Shown in pieces: positions 1-35,124 of a DNA stretch of 43,073 bases. Source of the DNA: Candidatus Woesearchaeota archaeon (GTDB taxonomy: Archaea > Nanobdellota > Nanobdellia > SCGC-AAA011-G17 > ARS1403); contig JACOZQ010000009.1 of NCBI GenBank assembly GCA_016181275.1, positions 1 through 43,073 of the forward strand, given 5' to 3'. Both the position numbers and the translations under genes were made by a program. The notes beneath the pieces are model-generated. The model did no database searches. It was not told the DNA's origin and saw nothing but the letters and a program-made list of their open reading frames with translations. Every line of letters starts with the position of its first letter. Position 1 is the stretch's first letter.

Positions 1-3000
1 CTTCCAAGAATTAATGTGCTGGATTTTTTAAATGTCTTTTGATTCCAGTCAAAGCTGACATCGAAAGGAACTTCAGCATTTTCCTCTCCGATTATTTGGA
101 TTTTCCAAGCGACATCGCATCTATCTCCATATTTCATATTATTACATCCTGAGAATTCAATGTCATTCAGCTTAACAGTATCAGGATCTAATCCAAATAC
201 TTTTTGGAATAATGGCTTGTCTCCTCCGCAGCTGCTCCATTGAGCTACACTTCCAGGAATATTGCACTTGTCAAAGCAACTACAGCCGTCAACGTCATCG
301 CATTGCACATCGCATAAATCCAATTGCGTTCTCAAATTATCGCTCGGTCTGGAATACAAGCAGATCTCCTTGCTGTACTCTGAGCTGAATTTAGTCCAGT
401 CAGCAGAATCAATTTTTCCATTATTATCAAAGTCAGCTCTTGAATCAAAATTAGAATCTATTCCAGAATAAGTATTATATATAGTAGCAAAATAAACAAA
501 GTCAGAAAAGTCAATTACAGTATCCTGGTTAAAGTCAAAATTATTTATCTCGCTGCATCCTATTTGCTGTATTATTTGTGGCTGGCCGGGAACAGAGACA
601 GATTTGACAGTGACAGAGAATGCTGCTTCGCCAGATGCACCTCTTGAATCAGCAGCCCTAATTTTTATATTATAAACTCCAACATCTTTCTGGTACGCAC
701 CCCATCTTATGTTTCCAAAAGAATCCATGCTCATTCCGAAAGGAGCTTGAACTAAAGAATAAGATAAAGCATCATTATCAATATCATCAGCACTTGCTTT
801 AAATAATAAAACTTCTCCAGCAAATAATTCTTTGTTTGATATGCTTAAAGAAGGAGGATTATTAAGGACAGTTATAGCAAATCCTTTATCAGCTATTCCA
901 CCTCTTCCGTCGCTGGCTCTAACATTAACATTATGACTTCCTATTTGGCTGCTAGCTGATTTCCAGCTGATCAATCCATTGCTATTTATTGACATTCCAG
1001 CTGGAGCTTGTAACAAAGAATAAGCTAAAACATCGCCATCAGGATCACTGGCAGGAACTTGATAATTAAAATTGCTTTGAGCATTTATCTGCTGATTTGC
1101 TATGCTTGAGATTGTTGGATTATTATTGCATGCCTGTGTATTGCAGTTTTGAGTTTCAGTAGCAGCTCCAATACAGCTGGCTCCGCCGCAATAAGGAGCA
1201 GGGTTGTTGCATGTTCTAGCTCTAGTCTGAGTTCCTCCGCCGCAAGAAGCAGAGCACGAGCTCCATGAGCTCCAAGCATTCCAGCCGCCATTAACACTAA
1301 GTCCTTCATCAGTTTGTGCATTGCAATTGTCATCTATATTGTTGCATGTTTCAGTAGCACCTGGTTTAATATTGGCATTGGAATCAGAGCAGTCAAGATT
1401 ATTGCTTGAGTAACCAGCTGGCTGTGTGCATGCTTGAATCGCCGTTGATGATCCATATCCATCATTGTCCAGGTCTTTGTAATAAGTATTTTGAGCACAT
1501 AAAACAGTAAAAGTAAATCCTCTTCCAACATTGACTTTTGAATCAGAAACAGTAACTAAAATGCTATAAGCTCCAACCTGGCTGCTTGTTGGTGTGAAAG
1601 TTATCAAGCCATTATTATTAATAGACATGCCAGCAGGATTCTGTGATAAAGAATAGCTCAAAATATTTCCATCAGGGTCGCTAGCTTGAACTTGATAGCT
1701 AAAAAGATTTTTCTCTGTGACTTGTTGATTTGGAATGCTTGAAACAACAGGAGGATTATTTGGCGGTGGATTTACTATTATCGTAAAGCTGGTTTGAGAA
1801 TTTCCACCTCTTCCGTCGCTGACTTTTACAGTAGCAGTATGGCTTCCTAACTGGCTTGATGAAGGAATCCAGACAATGTTCCCGCCACCTCCAATAGTCA
1901 TTCCAGCTGGAGCCGATACTAAAGAATAACTCAACAAGTCTAAATCAGGATCTGAGCCAGTTGCAGTCAAGCTGAATGCGCTGTTCAAAGTTACCTCTTT
2001 ATTAGCAATCGGATTTATGCTTGGATTTCTATTGCATAAAGGCCTGTCATACTCGACAGCAAAAGCAACAAAGTCAGAAAAATCAACAACGCTGTTAGAA
2101 TTGAGATCATATCTTGTTTGATATCCTGCATCTGCAGAAGTTTTTCCAAAAGCAGCAGAAAATAAATTCCAATCATCAATGTCAATTCTTTTATCATTGT
2201 CATAATCCAAATTTCTATTTTCGGTGCATCCAGAAGCAGCTTTGGAAGCAGGAGCAGAAAGTGTACTGACAGTTATACTAAAGCTAGCTTGAGTTGCTCC
2301 TCCTTTATTATCATCAACGCTAACAGTAACACTATAGCTTCCGGCTTGACTTGTAGATGGTGTCCAGCTGATCAATCCTGCACTTGTCATCAACATGCCA
2401 CCAGGAGCCTGTGTTAAAGAATAAGAAACAGGATCATTATTAGGATCGCTGGCAGAAACTTGATAGCTAAACGGTTGACCGATAGTAATAGCTTGATTGC
2501 TAATCGTGTTTATAACAGGATTGCTGTTGCACGTTTGCGTATTGCAGCTCTGTGTTTCATAACTAGGTCCAGAACACTCAGCACCTCCGCACGCAGGAGC
2601 AGGATTGTTGCATGTCCTTGTTCTGCTTTGAGTTCCTCCGCCGCAAGAAGCAGAGCACGAGCTCCATGAGCTCCAAGCATTCCAGCCGCCATCAGTAGGA
2701 TAGCAAGTCGGCAAACAACTCCCATCTCCATAACAGCCGGCGCTACAATATGAATTAGTACCAACCCATTCATAGCAAGGATCTGAATCCCCATCAGTTC
2801 TGCAGTCAAATTGTTGCCAATAATCAGAATAATAGCCAGTTCCATATCTGCATTCTCTTCCTCCACCAGTGCATTCATTAGAGCAAGTAGTAACACATAA
2901 AGGGCTGTTAGATTCTTTTACTCTCCAGTAAATTGTTTTTTCTGCACTTACATAGCACCACTCAACCCAATTACTACTGCTGCATTTTCCATTCCCCATC

Positions 3001-3104
3001 CACACTCCATCGCTACAACCATTTGCTTGAGCTGGAGTCTCTGGGAAATCAACTATTGAAAAAAGAGAAATTACAAAGAAAATGAAAAATATTTTTAGTT
3101 TCAT
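1..3104 (-). CDS. Giant secreted surface/adhesin-like protein, 3'-partial (C-terminus beyond the left edge; about 1034 codons in the window). Contains a signal peptide, a Cys-rich head, 2 thrombospondin type-1 repeats, 5 He_PIG/cadherin-like Ig repeats and 2 dockerin-like Ca-loop modules.
   Basis: It is absent from the ORF track because this frame has no stop in the window; a stop would have produced a listed ORF starting at 3104. Hand translation from ATG 3104 gives [27 protein letters not shown]... I checked that the frame is open over 3104 to about 2000 and 600 to 1. TSR motifs: [54 protein letters not shown] (2690..2529) and [54 protein letters not shown] (1289..1128). There are five ASDP(D/N)xDxLSYSLxQAPxGM repeats. 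Paired DxDxDxxID loops lie at about 2207..2047 and 545..375. Its ATG overlaps the TGA of the upstream gene (ATGA at 3101..3104). Confidence 0.85.
1228..1291. repeat. Perfect 64-nt intragenic repeat, copy A (core of TSP1 repeat 2)
   Basis: 1228..1291 is identical to 2629..2692 by direct base-by-base comparison. The flanking bases diverge. It encodes ...[21 protein letters not shown]. Confidence 0.9.
2629..2692. repeat. Perfect 64-nt intragenic repeat, copy B (core of TSP1 repeat 1)
   Basis: Identical to 1228..1291. The repeat also shows up in the off-frame track ORFs 1100..1333 and 2510..2896, which share [20 protein letters not shown]. Confidence 0.9.
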
Positions 3105-3457
3105 AATTTTTGGCATTCCTCCCTTAAGAAGTCATTTATAATTTTATCGCATAAATCTAAATTTCCTTTTTTTGCATTTTCAAAGTAATAATTATCTTCG
3201 CATAATTGTTTTGATTCCTGCTCAAAATTTTCGCAGAGCTCAATGTTTTCAGCAGAATTTCTTAATAATTGGTTCTCAGAAAAAGAAAGATCATCAGATT
3301 CATCAGGAGAAAAGCTTCCAAAGCAAATTTTCTCTCCATCAACGTCAGCATAATTTTCGCATTTCTCAACAGCAGCATTTCTCTCACAGCCCTGTCCAGT
3401 TACAAATACTAAAGTAATAAAGATTGCAAATATCCAAAATTTATTTTTTATTTTCAT
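3101..3457 (-). CDS. Small secreted Cys-rich acidic protein (possible lipoprotein)
   Basis: N-terminal signal [24 protein letters not shown], with a Cys directly after the hydrophobic core (lipobox-like). There are 8 Cys in 118 aa. ATGA start/stop overlaps occur at both ends (3454..3457 and 3101..3104). Confidence 0.7.
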
Positions 3458-4848
3458 TTTATATTAATATCAACATTCCCGCAGCCATTAGCATCTTGGC
3501 ACACAAATCCCGCGACAACAGCAATATCAACCCCGCTGGGAACTTCAATTCTCTGCCCAGCATCGTATCCGTAAATTATAACAGCAGGATCACATGTATT
3601 TATCGGAGGATTATTCTCGTCAGCAACCCATCGTCCGAGCTCATTGCAAACTTCCTCTCCTCTAATGCATATTCCGCTTCCAGTTCTTCTCTGGCCTAAT
3701 CTGCATTGGCAGCCAATTTCATCAATTTCATTATTGCAGTTGTTATCAATGCCGTCGCAGATCTCATTCATCCCAGGATTAATATTGGCATTGTCATCTC
3801 TGCAGTCGTCAACTTTATACCCGGCAAGCAGGCATAAATTATTTGATGCATAATTATCCAAGTCCTTGTCGCAAAAGCTGTCGCATCTCAAATCAGCAAT
3901 GCCGTCGCAGTTATTGTCTATATTATCATATCCAGTTTCAGCTTCGCAACTTTCAGTAGCAGCAGGATTAATATTTTCATTTGCATCATTGCAGTCAATT
4001 CCACCAGTGAAAATAATATCATCATAGCCATCCCCATCTTTATCAAATTCATTTGCCAGTAAAGTGCATTCGCAGTAGCTCGAAAATAATGGATCATAAT
4101 CCTTTGGAAAAACATTTTCTTCAACAAGGCCGAAAACAGAATTAGAGCAGATCCCGCTACCGATTTTTTTAGAATATCCCGGATAGTTGCATCCCAGCTG
4201 CTCTTGCAAAATTATTTCCTGCTCACCTTCTTCAATAATGATCTCTTCTTCAAATCTTTCTTCTCCGGCTGAAACACACTCTCCGATTTTGCCTTTGCAT
4301 TCTTCCAAGTTTTCATTGGTGCAGCAAATCTGATTATTGCTTGGGCATCCGCAAAATCCAGGATATGAACAGCTGCTGATAATCTCTCCTTCCGAGCAAT
4401 AATAAGGTCTGTCAGCAATATTGTTTGTAACAAATCCAGCACATTGATTGTTTTTAATTAACGTCCCATTATAATCGCAGCTCAGCAGATAATCTTGGCT
4501 CAAAGTAAAATCTTTTCTGACAGCATTTTTCCTCTCAGCATCCCAGATTACAAAGTAATAATCTCCAGGCTCAAAAATTCCAGTTCCAATCTGGCTGAAT
4601 GCTATTCTTGCCTCGCAATTAGCCACATTATTACAATTTAAAGGTACAGTTCCAATAAATCTCTGAATTGGATCAGCTCCCTCAAAGTATTTTCCTTTGT
4701 AAAATTCGACATTGTCGCTATATCCTTTATCGGAAATCTTAATCAAAATTCCTCCTTTAATGAATGAAAAATTAACTGAGAAATTAACCTGAGCTAAAGA
4801 AAGCGGTACGATTAGCAAAATTAAAATTAAAATCAGTTTCTTATACAA
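3454..4848 (-). CDS. Secreted Cys-rich protein with MopE-like 'putative metal-binding' CxDxxxxInPgxxExCDGIDNnC repeats
   Basis: The track ORF is 3454..4935. I prefer the TTG start at 4848, which is preceded by AGAGGTGGGA (SD-like, 4851..4860) and yields (M)YKKLILILILLIVPLSLAQ, a clean signal peptide. Motifs: DCNDANENINPAATESCEAETGYDNIDNNCDG and DCRDDNANINPGMNEICDGIDNNCNNEIDE. Confidence 0.75.
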   Translation of the reverse strand: MYKKLILILILLIVPLSLAQVNFSVNFSFIKGGILIKISDKGYSDNVEFYKGKYFEGADPIQRFIGTVPLNCNNVANCEARIAFSQIGTGIFEPGDYYFVIWDAERKNAVRKDFTLSQDYLLSCDYNGTLIKNNQCAGFVTNNIADRPYYCSEGEIISSCSYPGFCGCPSNNQICCTNENLEECKGKIGECVSAGEERFEEEIIIEEGEQEIILQEQLGCNYPGYSKKIGSGICSNSVFGLVEENVFPKDYDPLFSSYCECTLLANEFDKDGDGYDDIIFTGGIDCNDANENINPAATESCEAETGYDNIDNNCDGIADLRCDSFCDKDLDNYASNNLCLLAGYKVDDCRDDNANINPGMNEICDGIDNNCNNEIDEIGCQCRLGQRRTGSGICIRGEEVCNELGRWVADENNPPINTCDPAVIIYGYDAGQRIEVPSGVDIAVVAGFVCQDANGCGNVDINIK

Positions 4849-4988
4849 AATCCCACCTCTATTTTTATCATAAAGATTGCAACCTTCAGATAAATTTATA
4901 CATATTATATCATATAAAAAACTTTCTAATATCACCGCAAGTTAGCAAAGAATGCAGGTAAAAGATATTTAAGCTTAAAAAAATAAAA

Positions 4989-5528
4989 TCACTGAACTTG
5001 CTCTCTCAAACAATTTCTCACTTCAATTATTTTTTTCAGCTCATTGCAAAAATTAGCTCCCTTTGAAGTTTCAACTTTTGGAACAACCTCGATCTTTTTA
5101 ATTTCCCTGTACCATCTCTCTTCAGAATCTTCTTCAGCTTTTTCTTCTGGGCGGGCAACTCCGATTTCCTTAACTTCATAAGCATTCAATCTAGTTCCGT
5201 ATAGAAAAGTGCCAACTTCGCTTCCTTCATCGAATAAAACACTGACTACAAAATTTTCCTTGAAGTCAATATTCTTCTCATTTCTCACTCTAACAAGGAT
5301 TGCATTTTTTATTTTATCAGGTCCACTGTCAGAAGGATTGCAGTAGGCATCCTCAATAAAGAATTTTACCTCGTTGCAGCTTGAAAATCTTTCGAATGAT
5401 TCCTGTCCTTTTTCCAGACTTTTTTCAATTGATTTTCTCGAGAAGCTTACTAAAACACTTGTCAAGGCAACAACCAAGACAATCAACAAAACTGTGGATA
5501 TTATCGGCGAGATTCCTTTCTTTTCCAT
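4989..5528 (-). CDS. Archaeal type IV pilin-like protein (class III signal peptide)
   Basis: The N-terminus MEKKGISPIISTVLLIVLVVALTSVLVSF matches the archaeal prepilin/DUF1628-type KG|ISPIIxTVLLI processing site followed by a hydrophobic helix. Confidence 0.8.
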   Translation of the reverse strand: MEKKGISPIISTVLLIVLVVALTSVLVSFSRKSIEKSLEKGQESFERFSSCNEVKFFIEDAYCNPSDSGPDKIKNAILVRVRNEKNIDFKENFVVSVLFDEGSEVGTFLYGTRLNAYEVKEIGVARPEEKAEEDSEERWYREIKKIEVVPKVETSKGANFCNELKKIIEVRNCLREQVQ

Positions 5529-5567
5529 GACAATCTTTAAAAGTCTTTAATATTTAATAGTTTTCAT

Positions 5568-5642
5568 GGGCCTATAGTTTAGTCTGGATAAAACATTCGG
5601 CTTCGGACCGAAAGATCTGGGGTTCAAATCCTCATAGGCTCG
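5568..5642 (+). tRNA. tRNA-Arg (anticodon UCG)
   Basis: Cloverleaf folded by hand: acceptor GGGCCTA/TAGGCTC (one G-U pair), D stem GTTT/AAAC, anticodon stem TTCGG/CCGAA with loop CTTCGGA, T stem TGGGG/CCTCA with loop TTCAAAT, discriminator G. No CCA is encoded. Confidence 0.85.
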
Positions 5643-5832
5643 ATTTAATTTTATAAAATCTTTCTAAACAAATAATCTATGAGGAATAACAATAAATGGA
5701 AAAATACATTTCATAATTAGCTTCAGAATATAATTGGAAAGAAATAGAGATGTTCAAACCTTTACTTGGATTGATGAGAATTCGGAGAGATTATAGAAAT
5801 AATTAAAAACTTGATAAATCACAATTTATATT

Positions 5833-5873
5833 AAAATGGCAGAAGAGACTCAAGAAGCAATAACTGTAAAAAA
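5833..5873 (+). repeat. Direct repeat, left copy: duplicate of the proS ribosome-binding/start region
   Basis: aaaatggcaGaagaGactcaagaagcaataactgtaaaaaa compared with 6520..6560 gives 39/41 identical by direct comparison. Confidence 0.9.
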
Positions 5874-5886
5874 GATTTATAAATAA
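5836..5886 (+). pseudogene. proS: Remnant 5' end of proS (16 codons, MAEETQEAITVKKIYK*)
   Basis: The first 13 codons parallel the intact ProRS N-terminus MAKETQEAITVKK. The reading frame then diverges and stops. Confidence 0.7.
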
Positions 5887-5905
5887 TGAAAATTATGCAA
5901 ATAAT

Positions 5906-6103
5906 ATGATATTTAACATACAGGATTACAAGGAAAATTTGGAAGTGTTTGAAAAAAGAATAGAATTATTAATTGGAAGTAAGTTGAAATTAAATAATAA
6001 AATTATAAATGCAGTTGCAGTGCAAGATGCAGCGAGATCAAAAATAAAAGGATGGGATGGCACAAAAGAAATCAGAAAATGGAGAGAAAGAAAAGCAAGC
6101 TAA
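5906..6103 (+). CDS. Putative antitoxin (VapB-like partner of the PIN protein)
   Basis: A 65-aa ORF immediately upstream of, and overlapping by 47 nt, a PIN-domain gene. It has a basic C-terminal tail GWDGTKEIRKWRERK. The assignment is by context only. Confidence 0.5.
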   Translation: MIFNIQDYKENLEVFEKRIELLIGSKLKLNNKIINAVAVQDAARSKIKGWDGTKEIRKWRERKAS

Positions 6104-6521
6104 TAATCTTGTCATCGATAGTTCTGTTGTAATCAAGTGGTTTTCTGATGAAGAAGATACAAAAAAGGCATTAAAAATAAGAGAGGATTTCTTGAATGGA
6201 AAAAATATAATTGCTGTGCCAGATATACAAATCTATGAAATAGCTAATGCATTAAGGTATAATAAACATATCACAAAAGAAGAAGTTATAAAATACGCAG
6301 ACAGTTTAATTGATATAGGCATAATTATTGTAATCCCAACAGCAGAAATAATAAAATCCTCAATAGAAATTGCTTTTGAGTATAATATTACAATTTATGA
6401 TGCGTGCTTCATATCACTAGCAAAAGATTTAAACTTTGATTTCATAACAGCTGATGAAAAGCTTTATCAAAAAATAGAAACATTAAAATTTGCTAGACTA
6501 TTAAATAATTTAAAAATATAA
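6057..6521 (+). CDS. vapC: PIN-domain ribonuclease toxin (VapC-like)
   Basis: LVIDSSVVIKWF (first acidic residue), IYEIANAL, IYDACFISLA and FITADEKL match the conserved PIN acidic quartet layout. The size is about 150 aa. Confidence 0.7.
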   Translation: MAQKKSENGEKEKQANNLVIDSSVVIKWFSDEEDTKKALKIREDFLNGKNIIAVPDIQIYEIANALRYNKHITKEEVIKYADSLIDIGIIIVIPTAEIIKSSIEIAFEYNITIYDACFISLAKDLNFDFITADEKLYQKIETLKFARLLNNLKI

Positions 6522-6560
6522 AATGGCAAAAGAAACTCAAGAAGCAATAACTGTAAAAAA
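6520..6560 (+). repeat. Direct repeat, right copy (functional proS start region)
   Basis: See 5833..5873. The repeat spans the vapC stop (6519..6521) and the proS ATG (6523). Confidence 0.9.
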
Positions 6561-12920: not shown

Positions 12921-15900
12921 TTATCTTTTAAGCCTAATTTTACCTTTATCGTCTTCTATTAGATTATTTTTTATTAAATAGCTAGTCGCTTCTTCTACCT
13001 TATCCCTTATCTTATTTCCCGTTCTATTGTTATGATAAATTACTCTTGCTATGTCCGAGACTATTGCTTCTTTAGTCATACTAAAAGAGTTCTTCAAAAT
13101 ATCGATTATTGCCCCTGCTAATTCTTCCTTTGGGATTAAAATAAATGGTCTATCGGTTTCTTTTGAAATTCTTACTGCACAAAGGGTTTCAATTGGTTCA
13201 AGAGAAATGGTGTTTTGATATATGTTGATTCCTTTTTCTTTCTTTAGCTCTTTTATTGTTTCATCGAATAAAACTTCTATTCTTCTACCTAATTTTTGAA
13301 TTCCTATAGAAATTAGTACACGCTTATATAATAGCCCTTTCTCAATGGGACTTTCTATTTCTAAAATTTCAATCATTCTTTTTTTAATGAGAGAAATAGC
13401 AGAATAATTATTAAGATTACCATATCCATCAAACTCTAAATTCATTCTGTGTAATGGGAGTTCTGCAATTTTATATTTCTTGTACTTATTTTTTAAGTCA
13501 ATTTCATTAAAATCTTCTTTTTCTTCAATCTCTAAGAAATGTGTTTTTTGTTTATACTCTAAAATTCCTTTAGATCTTAAGATTTCCTTTACTTTATTTT
13601 TTATTCTTTCAAGCTCATACTCTTTATTATTCAGCCAATCATCAGACCAGATCCTAATCATGTTCCAACCTAAATTTTCTAAAACCATCTGTCTAATTTT
13701 ATCTCTATCTCTTGCAAATCTTGAAGAGTGATATTGAGAGCCATCGCATTCAACACCCAATATATACTCTCCTAGTTTTTTTGGATGCTTGATTGCTAAA
13801 TCAATTCGATAACCTGAAAAACCAACTTGACAACTTACATCAAAACCCCCATTTATTAGTTCTTGGTATACTGCTTCTTCAAAAGAAGAATCGAATTGAA
13901 GCCCTTCTGTTTTCTGTAGAAATTTAGTAAAATCTTTATTTTTAGTAAAATCTAAATAATATTTTAGATATCTTACACCTTCAGCATTGATTTTATCTTC
14001 ATCCAAATCCTCAGGAAGCATAGAAGAGACAACAACCGTTTTAAATCTTGAACGAGTTATAGAAACATTAAGTCTTTTGTATCCCCCTTCTTTATTTAAT
14101 GGACCAAAATTATAACTAAATTTCCCAGAAGAATCTTTACCATAACCAATACTTAAAATAATTATATCTCTTTCATCTCCTTGTACTGTTTCAAGATTTT
14201 TTATAAATAATTCTTCATTATGAAGATCAATGGATTCCTCAATTTGTATATCTGCAATTTGAAACTCTTCTCTAATAGCATTTTCTTGTGCCATACTAAA
14301 TGCTATAATCCCTAATGATTTTTTTGGAAATTTCTTTTTTAAGTCAAGATAAATCTTAACTGTCTCTCTTGCTTCAACTCTATTTTTTCTAGATTTTCCT
14401 CTATCATATACCCCGCTTTTAACATATACAAAATCTAGTCCACTATCATCTTTTTCTCTAGGATTTGGGAATGTTATTAAACGATTTTCATAGAAAAATC
14501 TATTTGAAAATGAAATAAGTGTTTCGTTATTGCTCCTATAATGCCAGTCCAAAGATTTTGTTCTGAATTTCGTTATTGATTCACTTAAGAAACTCTCTAA
14601 ATCTTCAATTTCCTCTTCGGTTTCATCTTCTTGACTTAAAAAAAATGAAGTAGGTGGAAGTTGTTGAGTGTCACCCATAATAATAGCTTGTTTTGCTCTA
14701 ATTAAACAAGGAACCGCATCTTCCGGCATAATTTGTGAAGCTTCATCAAAAATTACCACATCAAATTTTATGGATTTGGGATTAATATACTGGCTTACGG
14801 TTAGAGGACTCATCATAAAACAAGGCTTTAATGCAAAAGCCAAATCAGGGATTTGTTCAAGAAGATCTCTAATCGGCTTTAATTTCCTCTTTTTTTCATT
14901 TTCTCTTTTAAGAATTGAAACTTCACTTTGACCACTACCGGAATAATTGTCTTTTGGTTGTCTACTTTCTACAGATTCCATAATTTTATATCTGAAAACT
15001 TCCCTAACCTTCAAATCATCATTCCTAAATTTTGCTATAAGTCTTTTTGGTGAAAATTTATTAGTCTTCTTTAAGATCTCTTCTAAAACTTGTAAATAAT
15101 ATGACTTAAGAAAGACTTTACTAAATTCACTCTTCTTTGTTTCCGCAAGATATTTAGTGATAAAATTATTTATTTCAGCGTCCAATTTAATAAAATCTTC
15201 TTTAAATGCTAGAACATCATTTATATTCTTAAACTGAGAATTTAATTTCTCTAAAACTTGCAGAATACCCTGAAACTTATCTAAACCGGTTAATAATTTT
15301 TTTTCAAAGAAATTTTCGATTTCAGTTAAAACAGAATAAAAATCATCAAACATTTGTCTTTGATTATGGTTAACTAATAATTGCATAATTGCATAATTTT
15401 TTGTCTTTGAAAGCTTATCCGAAATCTCAAATAAAGAAACTAAATCTTTACAATATTTATTTAATTTGGATATGGCTGTTAAATTCTTACAGTCCCCTAC
15501 GACCTCACACTTTTTCTTGTTTTTAGAAATAAGATCGGATAATTTTTTGTCTAGTTTTTCATAATTATTCTTTTTCTCAAAAAGAGAGATATAATCAGAA
15601 TGACTTATTTTTACTTTAGCATAAGCGTCTATTTCTTTCTTGCAAGCCTTATATTCAGAATTCAATAATCTTGAAAATAACGATGTCTCTTTGAATACTT
15701 TTTCTATTTTTTTAGAATTTAGTTCATCAATAAATGAATCTTTTGTTTTTGTAGTAATCTCGCTTCTTATATCCTTCAATTCTGAAAGCAGATTGAATAA
15801 TTCATCTATCAAAGAAGCATACTCTTCAAAATCTTTCGAGACTAAAAAGGAAAACTCCTTATTAAATTTAAATGAATGAATCTTCTCGTTTAATTTCTTT

Positions 15901-17438
15901 AGTAGATTTATATCGCTAACTAATTTTATTTCTATTCCTGTTTCTATTTTTAACTTATTTAAAAGATCATTTAATACTTTGTTACTGTCATTGAATTTCT
16001 TTAGACAAGAATTAAATCGATTTATTGATAGAGCAGTGTTTTTATCTTTTTGATAATTGAAATACACATTTTCCAAAGGATTGCCTAATAAATTGAAAGA
16101 AGAATTAAATCTTGTTAGTTTATCCAACATTATAGAAAATTCTTTTTTATTTAGCGAAACTGTTCTTTTTAGGGGATGGTCAATAATTTCATTTTTGTCT
16201 AATTTTGCTAATTCCCCTCTAATATCATAAACTGATAAATCCCATGGGGAATGTTTCTCACATAAAAATTTATAAAATTCGTTGATTTCTTTTTGAGACC
16301 CTAGGTAAGATGATATGTCTTCCCTTTTCATTGCAGAAGGAATTATAGGAGATGTTTGAAGTTCTTTCATTAGCTGTTTTATGATTTCTCTCTTATTTCC
16401 TTTATAATTATGTAAATTCAGACAGTATCTTCCTAATCCTACTTCATCAAGTCTCTTTTGAACTACATTTAAGGCAGCCATTTTCTGGCTTACAAAAAGA
16501 ATTTTTTTATTCTTTTCAATCAATGCAGAAATAATGTTTGCAATGGTTTGACTTTTACCTGTACCAGGAGGGCCTTGCAACACAAAAGTAACTCCTGCTT
16601 TTGCTAACTCTATTGCTCTTTTTTGTGAAGAATCAGCAGGTAAAACATCAATGCTATTCGCATCGTCAAATTCGTCTCTTTGTGATTCTGAAATCTCATC
16701 TTGTAAGGCATCTCTATCTCCGACATAAGCTTTAATCAAAGGACTATCCTTAACAAGCTTTTCGTTAAAGCTTAAATCTTCATACATAATGAATTTTTGA
16801 TAGGAAAATATGTCCAAATAAATATCTTCAGTAATTTTCCAATCTTTCATGCCTTCTAATTCATTTTTTAAATAAGATATGTATTCAGTAGACGTCTGAC
16901 CATCGAAATTTTTTATATCAATACCAAAATCATGTAATAATTTTTCTTTTAGAGCGGGATTTAATTTTATCTCTCCCGAATTAGAGTCAATTTCAAATCT
17001 GTGAGTGTCTTTGCTGACAACAGATAACCTATTCATTTCAATAGGATATAAAAAAATAGGAGCTTCTAAAAATAATTCAGAGTCATCTGATTCTTTATAC
17101 TTCAGAATCCCCAAGGAAACAAAACAAGTACTTATTCCTAATTCTTGGAAATTTTCCTTTGCTTTTAAGTAAAGTGCATATAATTTTTTATCAGTTATTT
17201 CTTTATCTTCAGAACATAGCCATTGCCTATCTTTGGCACTTTCTTTTTTATCTTTAAGAATAAACACATTTTGTTCGTGATCCAAATCTTCTATTATTTT
17301 TGAAAAAGATGGGGAGGTTATCTTAATAGATTTTGATTTTGTAAATCTGTATCTTACGAGATTATTTCTTTTAGACAAGTCAATAAGTTTTTTCTTCCAA
17401 TAATCTATTTTTTTATCAATGACTTTAGTTAAATCCAT
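12921..17438 (-). CDS. 1505-aa DUF4011 / Upf1-like SF1 helicase / Vsr(DUF559)-like endonuclease / DUF3320-type protein
   Basis: N-terminal DLSKRNNLVRYR (DUF4011 hallmark). Walker A at VLQGPPGTGKSQTI, motif II at VIFDEASQ, then VQGDERDIIILS and LNVSITRSR (AAA_12). Nuclease core GYRIDLAIKHP...GVECDGSQYHSSRFARDRDKIRQMVLENLGWNMIRIWSDDW. Confidence 0.8.
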   Translation of the reverse strand: MDLTKVIDKKIDYWKKKLIDLSKRNNLVRYRFTKSKSIKITSPSFSKIIEDLDHEQNVFILKDKKESAKDRQWLCSEDKEITDKKLYALYLKAKENFQELGISTCFVSLGILKYKESDDSELFLEAPIFLYPIEMNRLSVVSKDTHRFEIDSNSGEIKLNPALKEKLLHDFGIDIKNFDGQTSTEYISYLKNELEGMKDWKITEDIYLDIFSYQKFIMYEDLSFNEKLVKDSPLIKAYVGDRDALQDEISESQRDEFDDANSIDVLPADSSQKRAIELAKAGVTFVLQGPPGTGKSQTIANIISALIEKNKKILFVSQKMAALNVVQKRLDEVGLGRYCLNLHNYKGNKREIIKQLMKELQTSPIIPSAMKREDISSYLGSQKEINEFYKFLCEKHSPWDLSVYDIRGELAKLDKNEIIDHPLKRTVSLNKKEFSIMLDKLTRFNSSFNLLGNPLENVYFNYQKDKNTALSINRFNSCLKKFNDSNKVLNDLLNKLKIETGIEIKLVSDINLLKKLNEKIHSFKFNKEFSFLVSKDFEEYASLIDELFNLLSELKDIRSEITTKTKDSFIDELNSKKIEKVFKETSLFSRLLNSEYKACKKEIDAYAKVKISHSDYISLFEKKNNYEKLDKKLSDLISKNKKKCEVVGDCKNLTAISKLNKYCKDLVSLFEISDKLSKTKNYAIMQLLVNHNQRQMFDDFYSVLTEIENFFEKKLLTGLDKFQGILQVLEKLNSQFKNINDVLAFKEDFIKLDAEINNFITKYLAETKKSEFSKVFLKSYYLQVLEEILKKTNKFSPKRLIAKFRNDDLKVREVFRYKIMESVESRQPKDNYSGSGQSEVSILKRENEKKRKLKPIRDLLEQIPDLAFALKPCFMMSPLTVSQYINPKSIKFDVVIFDEASQIMPEDAVPCLIRAKQAIIMGDTQQLPPTSFFLSQEDETEEEIEDLESFLSESITKFRTKSLDWHYRSNNETLISFSNRFFYENRLITFPNPREKDDSGLDFVYVKSGVYDRGKSRKNRVEARETVKIYLDLKKKFPKKSLGIIAFSMAQENAIREEFQIADIQIEESIDLHNEELFIKNLETVQGDERDIIILSIGYGKDSSGKFSYNFGPLNKEGGYKRLNVSITRSRFKTVVVSSMLPEDLDEDKINAEGVRYLKYYLDFTKNKDFTKFLQKTEGLQFDSSFEEAVYQELINGGFDVSCQVGFSGYRIDLAIKHPKKLGEYILGVECDGSQYHSSRFARDRDKIRQMVLENLGWNMIRIWSDDWLNNKEYELERIKNKVKEILRSKGILEYKQKTHFLEIEEKEDFNEIDLKNKYKKYKIAELPLHRMNLEFDGYGNLNNYSAISLIKKRMIEILEIESPIEKGLLYKRVLISIGIQKLGRRIEVLFDETIKELKKEKGINIYQNTISLEPIETLCAVRISKETDRPFILIPKEELAGAIIDILKNSFSMTKEAIVSDIARVIYHNNRTGNKIRDKVEEATSYLIKNNLIEDDKGKIRLKR

Positions 17439-17446
17439 GTTATTAC

Positions 17447-17593
17447 CTACTTAACCTCTTTCTTTCTAGGCGTATTCCAATAAGGTGATTTACATTTTGG
17501 GCATACCTTTGGCTCTTCAATAGTTGTTTCTCGAGGAACCCATTTATGCCCGCAACGTTCGCAAACATAGCCTTCTAATTTAACTTTTCCCAT
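17447..17593 (-). CDS. 48-aa zinc-ribbon protein (below the ORF-track size cutoff)
   Basis: Hand translation: MGKVKLEGYVCERCGHKWVPRETTIEEPKVCPKCKSPYWNTPRKKEVK*. It has CxxC...CxxC. The stop lies 8 nt upstream of the helicase ATG on the same strand. Confidence 0.6.
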   Translation of the reverse strand: MGKVKLEGYVCERCGHKWVPRETTIEEPKVCPKCKSPYWNTPRKKEVK

Positions 17594-18990
17594 ATTGAAT
17601 AGTTATATTCTCTTTAGTATATAAGTTTTACTATCTTACTAACCGAAAGGTTTAAATACTTAATAGTATATTATTAATAGGTATATAGGTAATGATTATG
17701 GAACAACCGCAACCTTTCAGAAAAAAGAAAAGAGTATCAGATAAAAACCTTTCTCTTAGCCGCAAGATTAAAGGATATGCAATTTTAGCAAAGGGAGATA
17801 TGCCAATAGCAGTAAGTGAAGAAGAGTTCTTAATTCCCTCTCAAAGCTCTAATAAGAAGTATAAAGTAACTAATATTTCTGGATGGAATTGTGAATGTCA
17901 AGATTTCCAAAATAGACATAGTGATTGCAAGCATATTCACGCTATTAAGCTCTGGATTAAGTTAAGAGCAAAGCCAGAAATAGAAGACTTGGAAATAGAT
18001 ACAAATGAAGAAAAGTGTATCTACTGCAATTCTCTTAATATTGTAAAAAATGGAGCAAGAAAAACAGTTATAGAGAATAAGCAAAGATTCAAATGCAAGG
18101 ATTGCGAAAAGAGATTTGTTCTTGATCCTATAAAGAAAATCAAAGGTAATGGTAAAATAGTAACTTTAGCAATGGACTTATACTTCAAAGGATTATCACT
18201 AAGAGATATTTCAGATACATTATTTCAATTCTACAATTTAAGAGTTCATTTTGATACAATAAGAAGATGGATCAGCAAATACACACAAATAATGGATAAT
18301 TATACAAAAAATTTCAAACCAGAATTAAGCGACAAATGGCACGTTGATGAGCAGATGATAAAATCAAAGAAAGATTATATCTGGTGCTGGAATGTTCTAG
18401 ATAGCGAAACAAGATTTTTGATAGCAAATAATATAACAAGAGGCAGAGAGATTACAGACGCAAGAGCAGTATTGAAAATAGCAAAGGAAAACATAAAAGA
18501 AAATCCTAAAGAGATTGTTACAGATGGCTTATGGTCGTACAATAGAGCAATCAGGAAAGAATTTGTTACAAAAAGAACAAGTCCAAATGCTGTTCTTCAT
18601 TCAAGAAATGCAGGAATAGCAAAGAAACTTCTTAACAACAATATGGTTGAACGCTATCATAATGAATTTAGAGAATTCGACAAAGTAAGAAGAGGATTTA
18701 AGTCAGATGAAACAGCACAGCAATGGAATGATGCCTTTAGACTTTATCATAACTTCATTAAGAAACACATGGCTCTGAATGGAGCAACACCTTCTCAAGT
18801 AGCAGAAATAGACCTAGGATTAGGCAGAAACAGATGGTTAAGTCTGCTAAAACAAAGTCTTAATCACCCGAATACGACAAAAAAGGATGTAATTTTAAAA
18901 TGACCCTTTAATACGACAGAGAGCCATTTTCTATTTTAAAATTTATAAATTGCATAAGTACGCAAAAATATTTATACTAATAAAAGATAA
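17594..18990 (+). mobile_element. IS6-family-like insertion sequence; ends not resolved
   Basis: It contains the transposase gene below. I could not find convincing terminal inverted repeats in the AT-rich flanks; the only match is a weak TTAGTATA / TATACTAA at about 17614 and 18974. The coordinates are the maximal intergenic span. Confidence 0.35.
17692..18903 (+). CDS. Transposase: SWIM zinc finger, IS1-like zinc ribbon and IS6/IS240-type DDE domain
   Basis: SWIM motif CECQDFQNRHSDCKHIH. Zinc ribbon CIYCNS...FKCKDCEKRF. DDE residues: WHVDEQMI, IVTDGLWSY, NNMVERYHNEFREFDKVRRGFKS (the IS6-like E and K/R region). Confidence 0.75.
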   Translation: MIMEQPQPFRKKKRVSDKNLSLSRKIKGYAILAKGDMPIAVSEEEFLIPSQSSNKKYKVTNISGWNCECQDFQNRHSDCKHIHAIKLWIKLRAKPEIEDLEIDTNEEKCIYCNSLNIVKNGARKTVIENKQRFKCKDCEKRFVLDPIKKIKGNGKIVTLAMDLYFKGLSLRDISDTLFQFYNLRVHFDTIRRWISKYTQIMDNYTKNFKPELSDKWHVDEQMIKSKKDYIWCWNVLDSETRFLIANNITRGREITDARAVLKIAKENIKENPKEIVTDGLWSYNRAIRKEFVTKRTSPNAVLHSRNAGIAKKLLNNNMVERYHNEFREFDKVRRGFKSDETAQQWNDAFRLYHNFIKKHMALNGATPSQVAEIDLGLGRNRWLSLLKQSLNHPNTTKKDVILK

Positions 18991-31878: not shown

Positions 31879-34365
31879 CTACTCCAAATATAAAGCAGGC
31901 TTTCCAATTTTTGCTTTACTTGATTTTTTCTCAGGATCATGTTTATCTTTGTCAGCAACAGAAAATATTTTTATCTCGAAACTTGTCCTTCTTGAAATGT
32001 CCTCGATGCTATCATTATAAATTTTTAATTCTTTAGGCAGAACATACACAAAACATTTTTTGATATCTTTATTTTTTTCTTTTACAATTTTAGCAACATT
32101 GTTTATATCATCAATAAGTTTCTCAATCTGCTCTTCATCATCTTCTAATTTCTTATCAATTTTTTTTTCATCAGCTTTAGGCCATTCAGCAACAGAAACA
32201 TATCCGTTTTCAAATAATTCCTCTGAGATGTGGGGAGCAAAGCAGCTCAGCATTATCAAGATTTTCTTCAAACTATCATCAAACACTTTAGCAGAAATGT
32301 TCTCTTTTTGTGTATGCATGAAGTTTGTCAGCTGCATCAATCTATTAATTGCAAGGTTGAATTTAAATTCATCCATGTCAACAGTTATTTCCTTAATTAT
32401 CTGATTCAATTTGCTTTCAAGAATTTTATCTTTAATATTCAATCTTGGTTTTATTTTATTTTTGAATGAATAAATTTTTTTTAAAAATCTGTAAACCCCT
32501 TCAATTCCTTTATCGTCCCATTCCCTATTTTTTCCAGGATCTCCCATGAATAATAAATAAGTTCTTAAAGTATCAGCTCCATATTTTTCAATTGTTTCCA
32601 TAGGATCGATGACATTGCCCTTTGATTTGCTCATCCTCATTCCATTTTTGTTTATCATTCCTTGATTAAACAAATTAATAAACGGCTCATCAATTTCCAG
32701 CAAGCCGATATCTCTCATCGCCTTAACAAAAAATCTTGCATATAATAAATGCAAAACAGCATGCTCGGCTCCGCCGATATACTGATCGACAGGCATCCAT
32801 TTCTCAATCTTTTTAGCATCAAAAATTTTCTTTTCATTTTTATTATCAATAAATCTCAAGAAATACCAGCTAGAATCAAAAAAAGTGTCCATTGTATCTG
32901 TTTCTCTTCTCGCATCTCCTCCGCATTTAGTGCATTCCACTTTATGGAATTTTTCATGATTAGCAAGCGGATTTCCTTCTCCGGAAAATTTGACATCATC
33001 AGGAAGCAAGACAGGAATTTCCGCAGGCAATATGCCACACTTGTCGCAGTATATAATTGGAATAGGGGTTCCCCAATATCTCTGTCTTGAAATCAACCAG
33101 TCTCTTAATTTGTAATTTATAGTTCTTTTCCCGAACTTTTTCTTCTCCAAATATTTTATTATTTCTTTTATAGCATCAAAATTATTCATGCCATTAAAAA
33201 TTTTATCAGAATTGATTACAATCCCCATATCAACATAAGCTTTCATCATCTTTTCAGCATCCAGCTCATATTCTTTTGGTTTAATAACAACTTTAACAGG
33301 AATTTTATATTTTCTAGCAAATTCAAAGTCTCTCTGGTCATGAGCTGGAACAGCCATCACAGCACCAGTACCATATTCAAGCAATACAAAATTAGCAATA
33401 TATATGGGAACCTCTTGATTGTTGACAGGATTAATGGCATATCTTCCTGTGAACAATCCTTCCTTCTCCTTGTCTTCAACAGCTCTTTCATATTTCTCAT
33501 CGATAACAACTTTGTTTGTGAATTTCTTTATTTCATTTTCATATTTAGTTCCTCTAACAAGATCAAAAACTTTGGGATTTTCAGGAGCCATCACCACAAA
33601 TGTAACTCCCCATAAAGTATCAGGTCTTGTAGTAAAAACTTTCAATTTGTCTTCGCTATTTTTTAGTTTAAAATCTATTTCAATACCATCACTTCTTCCA
33701 ATCCAATTCTTCTGCATGATTTTTATTTTCTCATTCCAATTTAATCCACTAATGTCTTTAAGCAGCTCATCGGCGTATTTAGTTATCTTCAAAAACCACT
33801 GCTCTAATTGTTTTATCTCAACTTTACTATGACATCTCCAGCATTCGCCATCTTCAACCTGCTCATTAGCAAGAACAGTTCCGCAATGACCGCACCAGTT
33901 TACAGGAGCTTTAGCTCGATAAGCAAGTCCATTCTCAAAAAATTTCAGGAACAGCCACTGATTCCATTTATAATATTCAGGATCGCATGTCTTAATCAGC
34001 TTGTTCCAATCATAACTAATTCCAAGTCTTTTCTGCTGGAAAATAAAATTTTTTATACTCTTTTCAGTATACTCTTTAGGATGGATTTTCTCTTTTATCG
34101 CGGCATTCTCAGCAGGCAGACCAAATGCATCATATCCCATTGGATAAAGAACATTGAATCCTCGAGCTCTTTTAAATCTTGCATAAGCATCTCCGATCGA
34201 ATAGTTAAAAGTATGTCCCAAATGCAACCCTAATCCAGAAGGATACGGAAACATCTCGAGGACGTAGCATTTTTTTCCTTTTTCTTTAGCTACAAATAAT
34301 TTATCTTTCTCCCATTTCTTCTGCCACTTCAACTCAATCTCTTTCAATTCTTTCATATCAATCAC
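31879..34365 (-). CDS. leuS: Leucyl-tRNA synthetase, bacterial type
   Basis: MFPYPSGLGLHLGHTFNY (HIGH region); VNWCGHCGTVLANEQVEDGECWRCHSKVEIKQLEQWFLKITKYADELL is nearly colinear with the E. coli LeuS Zn/CP1 junction as I recall it; KMSKSKGN (KMSKS). 828 aa. Confidence 0.9.
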   Translation of the reverse strand: MIDMKELKEIELKWQKKWEKDKLFVAKEKGKKCYVLEMFPYPSGLGLHLGHTFNYSIGDAYARFKRARGFNVLYPMGYDAFGLPAENAAIKEKIHPKEYTEKSIKNFIFQQKRLGISYDWNKLIKTCDPEYYKWNQWLFLKFFENGLAYRAKAPVNWCGHCGTVLANEQVEDGECWRCHSKVEIKQLEQWFLKITKYADELLKDISGLNWNEKIKIMQKNWIGRSDGIEIDFKLKNSEDKLKVFTTRPDTLWGVTFVVMAPENPKVFDLVRGTKYENEIKKFTNKVVIDEKYERAVEDKEKEGLFTGRYAINPVNNQEVPIYIANFVLLEYGTGAVMAVPAHDQRDFEFARKYKIPVKVVIKPKEYELDAEKMMKAYVDMGIVINSDKIFNGMNNFDAIKEIIKYLEKKKFGKRTINYKLRDWLISRQRYWGTPIPIIYCDKCGILPAEIPVLLPDDVKFSGEGNPLANHEKFHKVECTKCGGDARRETDTMDTFFDSSWYFLRFIDNKNEKKIFDAKKIEKWMPVDQYIGGAEHAVLHLLYARFFVKAMRDIGLLEIDEPFINLFNQGMINKNGMRMSKSKGNVIDPMETIEKYGADTLRTYLLFMGDPGKNREWDDKGIEGVYRFLKKIYSFKNKIKPRLNIKDKILESKLNQIIKEITVDMDEFKFNLAINRLMQLTNFMHTQKENISAKVFDDSLKKILIMLSCFAPHISEELFENGYVSVAEWPKADEKKIDKKLEDDEEQIEKLIDDINNVAKIVKEKNKDIKKCFVYVLPKELKIYNDSIEDISRRTSFEIKIFSVADKDKHDPEKKSSKAKIGKPALYLE

Positions 34366-34894: not shown

Positions 34895-34992
34895 GGGCCC
34901 GTAGCTCAGTTTGGATAGAGCACTAGCCTTCTAAAATAGTTTATTAAGAAGAAAGCTAGGGGTCGCGCGTTCAAATCGCGTCGGGCCCGCCA
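34895..34992 (+). tRNA. tRNA-Arg (anticodon UCU) with a 20-nt intron at the canonical 37/38 position and a genomically encoded CCA
   Basis: Acceptor GGGCCCG/CGGGCCC, D stem GCTC/GAGC, anticodon stem CTAGC (34923..27)/GCTAG (34955..59). There are 27 nt between the stem halves, which is the loop CTTCTAA plus an intron at about 34934..34953. The intron AGAAG pairs with the anticodon-loop CTTCT, leaving a 3-nt AAA bulge (BHB-like). T arm GCGCG-TTCAAAT-CGCGT, then G-CCA. Confidence 0.8.
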
Positions 34993-35051: not shown

Positions 35052-35124
35052 GGGCAGATACCGGAGTGGTTAACGGCGCCGCCTGCAGAGCGGTTATTCA
35101 TGGGTTCGAATCCCATTCTGCCCT
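35052..35124 (+). tRNA. tRNA-Cys (anticodon GCA)
   Basis: Acceptor GGGCAGA/TCTGCCC, anticodon stem GCCGC/GCGGT with loop CTGCAGA, T arm ATGGG-TTCGAAT-CCCAT, discriminator U (the usual Cys identity element). Confidence 0.85.

Follow-up and report, generated by a model that had tools for sequence, protein, structure and literature searches.

What are thrombospondin type-1 repeats (TSRs) doing in the genome of an archaeon, and where do they come from? The question is raised by the contig JACOZQ010000009.1 of a Candidatus Woesearchaeota archaeon (assembly GCA_016181275.1), analysed here over its full 43,073 nt and referred to below as the window, the beginning of which encodes a large modular surface protein with two TSRs. 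An initial annotation, made from the sequence, took these for textbook TSRs in a protein of a DPANN-like archaeon, and offered two readings, a candidate adhesin or a trace of inter-domain transfer. The answer that we prefer, and consider reasonably probable, is a Sec-exported, disulfide-rich modular surface protein of a DPANN archaeon that carries TSRs from a prokaryotic pool and probably serves in adhesion to a host surface or matrix.

The protein is encoded at the very start of the window:

3..3104 (-): TSR-bearing modular surface protein, partial ORF (open reading frame) of 1,034 codons, from stop-free translation

The frame, read from 3104 to 3, runs off the window start at the contig end, so that the C-terminus of the protein is missing. 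The protein of more than 1000 residues announced for 3104..1 of the minus strand is thus present as 1,034 open codons, C-terminally partial, and the two TSRs lie where they had been placed, at W141-C192 (window 2684..2529) and W608-C659 (window 1283..1128).

Both repeats were recognised by curated models. The Pfam TSP_1 model (PF00090) matched two stretches of the protein with 72 bits and E=4.4e-20, a significant score against the gathering cut-off of 21.6, and TSP1_spondin scored 48.2 bits (cut-off 41). A phmmer search with TSR1 against the PDB sequences retrieved human thrombospondin-1 (TSP-1) at E=8.5e-42, as well as properdin, UNC5, ADAMTS13, BAI1 and complement C6-C8. The alignment of TSR1 with the third TSR of TSP-1 (TSR3) is gap-free and reaches 63 bits and about 54% identity over 57 residues. 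With a hidden Markov model (HMM) built from TSRs, the complete window, translated in all six frames, yielded two domains only, scoring 85 and 88 bits. An AlphaFold2 model of residues 128-198, based on an input alignment of 70 TSRs, reached a mean pLDDT (predicted local distance difference test) of 88.1 and displays the Cys/Trp/Arg-layered, three-stranded fold. The best Foldseek matches for this predicted fold were the TSP-1 TSR crystal structures 7yyk, 3r6b and 1lsl, onto which the model superposes with a root-mean-square deviation (rmsd) of 0.5-0.9 Å over 57-58 residues (0.5 Å over 57 residues for 7yyk) and a query-normalised template-modelling (TM) score of 0.77-0.80. Pfam HMM, similarity to solved structures and predicted fold all support the initial description of textbook TSRs.

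The residues of TSR1 were mapped through the gap-free alignment with TSP-1 TSR3 and the description of the layered fold by Tan et al. 2002 (PMC2173040). The W layers are formed by W141, W144 and W147, and the R layers by Q159, R161 and R163, the equivalents of Q495, R497 and R499 (R3, R2 and R1) of TSP-1 TSR3; E183 and Q185 occupy the positions of its strand-C layer partners. In TSR2 the layer residues are W608/W611/W614 and Q626/R628/R630. Both repeats carry WxxWxxW on strand A and, on strand B, (R/Q)xRxR as the layer motif, and we assign them, from their sequences, to true group-1 thrombospondin type-1 repeats with a core of three stacked tryptophans and two arginines.

The cysteines deserve special attention. 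C150, C154, C165, C177, C187 and C192 of TSR1 align with C486, C490, C501, C513, C523 and C528 of TSP-1, and the canonical disulfides are predicted as C165-C177 (top layer), C150-C187 (bottom layer) and C154-C192 (third bond), which is the group-1 pattern. The six cysteines reported initially were therefore found, in group-1 spacing, but the count fell short by one, as each repeat has seven, the seventh within a NNPAPxCGG motif. TSR2 has C617, C621, C632, C639 (the extra one), C644, C654 and C659, and TSR1 possesses in addition C134, seven residues before the first Trp. For properdin TSR2, Tan et al. 2002 (PMC2173040) predicted an 'extra disulfide' by which the N-terminal end of strand A is tied to the beginning of strand C; the extra pair C134-C172 of TSR1 probably forms a disulfide between the starts of strands A and C. 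The nearest cysteine upstream of TSR2, C594, is 14 residues away from the first Trp and sits in a MopE motif, and a fourth bond of TSR2 may for this reason connect two modules.

Along the protein, the two TSRs are set in the following order of segments:

3024..3104 (-): signal-peptide-like segment, aa 1-27, seen in a Kyte-Doolittle scan, putative cleavage site placed by eye
2706..3023 (-): N-terminal Cys-rich region, aa 28-133, with 12 Cys and no Pfam match at E<=1
2529..2705 (-): TSR1, aa 134-192, from Pfam TSP_1, alignment to TSP-1 TSR3 and predicted fold
2259..2528 (-): He_PIG Ig-like (immunoglobulin-like) domain 1, aa 193-282, from Pfam He_PIG, best stretch 196-280
2034..2228 (-): Cys-bracketed EF-hand/dockerin-like Ca-binding loop pair 1, aa 293-357, from sub-threshold Pfam scores
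1500..2033 (-): He_PIG Ig-like domains 2 and 3, aa 358-535, from Pfam and DNA repeat families
1305..1499 (-): MopE-type Cys/Asp-rich motif region, aa 536-600, running straight into TSR2, from Cu-binding_MopE
1128..1304 (-): TSR2, aa 601-659, from Pfam TSP_1 and the TSR HMM
570..1127 (-): He_PIG Ig-like domains 4 and 5, aa 660-845, from Pfam and DNA repeat families
360..557 (-): Cys-bracketed EF-hand/dockerin-like loop pair 2, aa 850-915, from sub-threshold Pfam scores
3..359 (-): C-terminal Cys-rich region, aa 916-1034, incomplete and without family match in the Pfam scan

The Ig-like modules of the initial annotation were recovered as He_PIG domains, with He_PIG/Big_9 (He_PIG, PF05345) scoring 218.7 bits (gathering score 24, total E=9.5e-66) over five stretches, all five copies being marked by the DNA repeat family D2. 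Cu-binding_MopE (PF11617) at aa 571-600 is likewise above threshold (34.7-40.1 bits, cut-off 27), and each Ca-loop module contains, by eye, two D-x-D/N-x-D loops. The He_PIG units, and the two TSRs, are connected with one another by DNA repeat families, and the layout appears as a near-duplicate of one super-module made of a Cys-rich region, a TSR, He_PIG domains and a Ca-loop pair. The protein is acidic (pI 4.3), contains 44 Cys in 1,034 residues, has the N-terminal signal-like peptide as its sole hydrophobic stretch in the Kyte-Doolittle scan and forms a singleton protein cluster.

How exceptional are such repeats among prokaryotes? The initial annotation had considered prokaryotic TSRs to be rare, a view that has to be abandoned. 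We scanned 185,579 bacterial and archaeal species, one genome each, with a pattern from a five-sequence TSR alignment and confirmed the hits by tblastn, which gave at least 152 confirmed TSR stretches in these species representatives. Among the best 80 loci from these at least 152 stretches, with taxa as labelled in the records, 28 are affiliated with the Candidate Phyla Radiation (CPR)/Patescibacteria, nine with DPANN or unclassified archaea, nine with Bdellovibrionota/Oligoflexia and seven with Myxococcales, and the remaining ones include Rickettsiales, Omnitrophota and Gammaproteobacteria. The Pfam TSP_1 gathering score is passed by seven of the nine archaeal loci, and TSP_1 was found at E<=1e-4 in 48 of the 57 proteins scanned (56 from the loci, plus the window protein). 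MopE, CARDB, He_PIG, VWA, PA14, Beta_helix and fn3 domains are the partners of TSRs in the prokaryotic proteins. By these similarities the window protein appears as a further example of a little-noticed, recurrent prokaryotic TSR pattern, not as a one-off.

Among the best 120 matches to the window protein, the TSR-bearing ones are for the most part animal proteins of SCO-spondin-, hemicentin- or ADAMTS-like type, and those with He_PIG are bacterial or Woesearchaeota proteins; none other of the 120 joins TSP_1 with He_PIG, and the full architecture was found in no other protein among the matches listed. Around the genes of three multi-TSR proteins from metagenomes (P0018, P0099 and P0006) lie sparse or unannotated ORFs, which do not reveal whether these proteins are prokaryotic. 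The viral collection yielded two TSR loci only. In a predicted viral sequence (IMGVR_UViG_3300044960_000727, locus L088, 4020-5252) a papain-family cysteine protease (Peptidase_C1, 107.8 bits) is fused to a TSR (39.4 bits), and the fusion ends in a C-terminal hydrophobic anchor.

The nearest TSRs among the matches listed come from a Nanoarchaeota locus (L005) and a Magasanikbacteria (CPR) locus (L004), both at 75% identity, followed by other DPANN/CPR loci; the best animal TSRs, those of an oyster metalloendopeptidase (P0045), show 70-73%. The nearest neighbour was prokaryotic for 122 of the 126 prokaryotic TSRs, including the two of the window, in a comparison set that derives to 83% from the mostly eukaryotic hit list. 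Read as a direct transfer from a eukaryote to an archaeon, the inter-domain event proposed initially is at odds with both results. Two further features set the prokaryotic repeats apart. The extra Cys is present in 34 of 124 prokaryotic TSRs versus 21 of 633 hit-list TSRs (odds ratio 11, Fisher p=1.5e-15), the latter 21 coming from two sponges, an annelid and a semaphorin, and the mean number of basic residues per TSR is 2.06, little more than the structural arginines, versus 5.31 in the mostly eukaryotic hit list. The window TSRs have two basic residues each, the structural arginines, and a net charge of 0 or +1. Prokaryotic TSRs, as far as their sequences tell, retain the layered core without the charged face, and we place those of the window in a prokaryotic pool common to DPANN archaea and CPR bacteria. 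The about 55 alignable columns are too few to tell the direction of ancient transfer.

The Nanoarchaeota locus (1259-6531, metagenome-assembled genome (MAG) contig DAOWJK010000011.1) has its 75%-identical TSR in a 327-aa membrane-anchored protein, the gene of which is near genes for prolyl-tRNA synthetase (ProRS) and a DHH-family protein, as in the window. The two ProRS are only 37% identical, so that the shared neighbourhood may be a coincidence, and for the same reason synteny with this locus was not used as a sign of vertical inheritance. The Candidatus Magasanikbacteria locus (81-3314, MFQY01000003.1) encodes a protein of about 1,078 aa in which two TSR pairs, about 450 residues apart, flank a right-handed beta-helix/NosD region; the spacing echoes the duplication in the window, and the filler domains differ.

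The genomic context of the TSR gene is archaeal. The window encodes Ribosomal_L15e, archaeal Nre (Nre_N/C) and DUF7121, as well as a ProRS bearing the archaeal/eukaryotic C-terminal domain (ProRS-C_1), and the closest named L15e proteins are from Candidatus Woesearchaeota and Nanoarchaeota MAGs (73-74% identity). This accords with the DPANN-like genome claimed at the outset, and we affiliate the source genome, by these markers, with DPANN archaea of the Woesearchaeota/Nanoarchaeota type. The G+C content of the first 3 kb is raised (0.39-0.42 versus about 0.32), which reflects amino-acid composition, since the excess sits at codon position 2; at third codon positions (GC3) the TSR gene has 0.285 and its neighbours 0.19-0.33. 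Upstream of the gene are three others:

4989..5528 (-): gene opening the cluster, for a protein with archaellin/type IV pilin N-terminal domain (TIGR02537, 26 bits versus 20)
3454..4935 (-): 493-aa protein with two MopE motifs as in the TSR protein (Pfam), its gene overlapping that of the 118-aa protein
3101..3457 (-): 118-aa secreted-looking Cys-rich protein, its stop overlapping the ATG of the TSR gene (ORF overlap)

The TSR gene is the last of these four same-strand genes (pilin-like, 493-aa, 118-aa, TSR), which are closely spaced or overlapping and may constitute a co-expressed surface apparatus. In four independent Logan contigs, which stem from other runs, the 118-aa gene is linked with the beginning of the TSR gene, so the junction of the archaeal flank with the TSR gene is real, and the gene is native to the archaeal genome. 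Metagenome contigs bearing the upstream genes end within TSR1, and no relative of aa 901-1034, the C-terminal part of the protein, was present in the metagenome contigs searched.

Elsewhere in the window, a 666-aa candidate S-layer protein is encoded at 35490-37490 (-), with 180.9 bits to NCBIfam PACE-CTERM-PROT (threshold 110). The leucyl-tRNA synthetase at 31879-34365 (-) contains the PF13603 editing domain (242.6 bits), which is typical of bacterial-type enzymes, and may be a synthetase of bacterial origin in an archaeal genome. A protein of 1,505 aa (12921-17438, -), in which DUF4011, AAA_11/AAA_12 helicase, MTES_1575 nuclease and DUF3320 domains are combined, adjoins an IS240-type DDE transposase (17692-18903, +), and the 12921-18903 region has the lowest G+C of the window (0.27-0.28). 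A tRNA-Arg(TCT) of 98 nt (34895-34992, +), probably intron-bearing, adjoins tRNA-Cys (35052-35124).

Taken as an adhesin, the protein could work as follows. The TSR gene would be co-transcribed with the type IV pilin-like gene and the two genes for other secreted Cys-rich proteins, and its product displayed on or near the cell surface, with the segments in the order given above, from the signal peptide and the Cys-rich head to the Cys-rich tail. The He_PIG domains would act as spacers and the rigid TSRs as recognition or attachment modules for the host cell surface or a matrix component. The TSR modules themselves would have been shuffled among secreted proteins of CPR, DPANN, Bdellovibrionota, Myxococcota and others, with no recent acquisition from eukaryotes. 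An adhesin role is plausible by analogy. As to the ligand, the basic groove of TSRs was proposed as a 'recognition face' for glycosaminoglycans by Tan et al. 2002 (PMC2173040). This positively charged groove of animal TSRs is not conserved in the window TSRs, which makes a protein or neutral glycan more likely as a ligand than a sulfated polyanion, and either of these, or a purely structural role, appears likelier than heparin-like binding.

Several points weigh against this reading. The case for an adhesin draws on analogy with known domains and on the assumption that DPANN archaea live as episymbionts. Glycosaminoglycan binding, the best-documented TSR activity, is unlikely to carry over to repeats with two structural arginines and a charge of 0 or +1. 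The 1,034 residues show neither a membrane anchor nor a sorting signal, the C-terminus being cut off. The AlphaFold2 model is not independent of known structures, as its input alignment consisted mostly of eukaryotic TSRs, and the disulfide geometry of the TSRs follows from the alignment, not from model coordinates. Of the Ca-loop modules, loop pair 2 stays just under threshold for Dockerin_1 (PF00404; 21.7 bits versus 22.9) and for EF-hand_1 (24.9 versus 25.4), and loop pair 1 scored 14 bits for Dockerin_1 and 18-23 bits, under the gathering score, for EF-hand_7. The clustering of prokaryotic TSRs and their lifestyle bias are indications, not a census, since both sets were chosen by similarity to the window protein.

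The main rival holds that the TSRs are mainly structural and bind nothing specific, serving a surface-layer or scaffold protein as rigid spacers that are stapled by disulfides and resist proteases; we regard it as unlikely, yet as deserving a serious hearing. It would account for a core that is kept while the charged recognition face is lost (about 2 basic residues versus about 5.3), for the position of the window TSRs between spacer-type Ig-like domains and for the very heterogeneous partner domains of other prokaryotic TSR proteins. The two near-threshold dockerin/EF-hand modules are in line with it as well, and could, in a version to which we give the same modest credit, dock the protein to other components. 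However, the surface residues are highly conserved with the DPANN/CPR homologues (75% identity), beyond what a spacer needs, the dockerin score is below threshold, and no cohesin or cohesin-like partner was seen among the window proteins.

The remaining explanations are minor. One of them, which we judge improbable, considers the two-TSR architecture as an assembly artefact, either a mis-join of two TSR genes or a rearrangement via a repeat shared by both copies:

2629..2692, identical to 1228..1291 (no strand assigned): 64-nt perfect repeat inside both TSR copies, covering 21 residues of each, from sequence self-comparison

The TSR copies are 81% identical overall as a DNA repeat and diverge sharply just past the 64 nt, a configuration that invites the suspicion of a mis-join and also suggests partial gene conversion between the copies. 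Three Logan contigs, from independent assemblies, were mapped onto the window; two are base-identical to it, and all stop at position 2663, 30 nt into the repeat, where the k=31 assembly graph branches because of the repeat. The order of segments across the repeat is accordingly that of the present assembly only. Against an artefact speak the frame, which is open through both junctions over 1,034 codons, the uniform GC3 along the gene, the DNA repeat families shared by the He_PIG units that flank each TSR, and the MopE-TSR junction of the second copy, which was seen independently in a Nanoarchaeia locus (L011). Even with a wrong order, each TSR stays a real archaeal sequence.

Still less probable, in our judgement very much so, is a recent acquisition of the TSRs from a eukaryote, a metazoan or protist of the same habitat, or an archaeon-eukaryote chimera, which the initial annotation had foreseen as a possible flaw of the contig. 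The identities to oyster (70-73%) and to human TSP-1 TSR3 (about 54%, gap-free) would fit such an origin, as would the POFUT2-type CSxSCG consensus, which by eye is intact. However, the reading frame of the TSRs continues into He_PIG and MopE modules of bacterial type, and their nearest relatives are from DPANN/CPR and have the extra-Cys signature in common with them. Chimeric or foreign DNA was rejected on the GC3, which equals that of the neighbours, on the start/stop overlap with the upstream gene and on the junction with archaeal genes, reproduced in independent assemblies. Finally, convergence towards a Trp- and Cys-rich motif that is no TSR homologue can be practically dismissed. Short, low-complexity Cys-rich modules can give spurious similarity, but 72 bits to a curated model and about 54% gap-free identity over 57 residues to a solved TSR, with all layer-forming residues conserved, speak against it.

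The preferred reading, a surface protein with adhesive TSRs of the prokaryotic pool, bears on a wider problem. DPANN archaea and CPR bacteria have to attach physically to their hosts, and few of the contact molecules are known. A compact, easily recognised module with disulfide staples that turns up repeatedly in the secreted proteins of CPR, DPANN and predatory bacteria is an expressible candidate for binding studies. According to these data the TSR is not exclusive to eukaryotes, and its layered core can persist without a charged ligand face, which bears on domain evolution and on the distinction of structural from functional parts. The single gene is unremarkable beside its relatives; the recurrence in cell-attached lineages is the broader pattern. 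We entertain, with considerable reservation, a low-charge, often four-disulfide prokaryotic TSR subfamily that would pass between bacteria and archaea, notably between CPR and DPANN, and would occur above all in cell-attaching lineages, namely CPR, DPANN, Bdellovibrionota, Myxococcota, Omnitrophota and Rickettsiales. The eukaryotic TSR may then descend from the prokaryotic pool instead of being its source, and such TSRs, if the proposal is true, represent a shared toolkit for the recognition of host or prey surfaces.

Among known systems, human TSP-1 TSR3 (group 1; 1lsl, 3r6b, 7yyk) shares with the window TSRs the WxxWxxW ladder, the Q/R/R layers, the E/Q strand-C partners and the six Cys. The window repeats differ from it in the seventh Cys in NPAPxCGG and in their prokaryotic flanking domains (He_PIG, MopE), and TSP-1 TSR2/3 contain 5-7 basic residues in contrast to their two. 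The acceptor motifs for C-mannosylation of Trp (WxxW) and for O-fucosylation (CSASCG) are present in the TSR sequence; machinery for either modification is not known in archaea. In properdin TSR2, a Cys before strand A and a Cys in 'HPAPKCGG' align with C134 and C172 of the window protein, whereas in window TSR2 the putative partner Cys is 14 residues upstream, in the MopE motif; unlike the window protein, properdin consists exclusively of chained TSRs and functions in complement. The apicomplexan TRAP/CSP proteins are alike in concept, being surface TSRs with which a host-dependent cell attaches, and CSP is a weak sequence match to TSR1 (E about 2e-4). Their binding of heparan sulfate depends on basic residues, which are absent from the window TSRs. 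TRAP-type TSRs belong to group 2, with another top disulfide and the first Trp often absent (Tan et al. 2002, PMC2173040), in contrast to the group-1 repeats of the window. The He_PIG/tandem-95 surface proteins of bacteria and Woesearchaeota match the query with 26-35% identity over between a third and about 80% of its length, but none among the matches listed carries TSP_1. Closest are the prokaryotic TSR proteins, known as MAG predictions only. TSRs of the secreted proteins at L005, L011, L004 and L006 are 70-75% identical to those of the window, many with the extra Cys; L006 (Myxococcales) and L007 combine TSP_1 and He_PIG in one protein, and the Nanoarchaeia protein of L011 unites three MopE motifs, a TSR and an EF-hand-like segment, an order that it has in common with the window protein, with 47% identity over aa 541-659 of the window protein.

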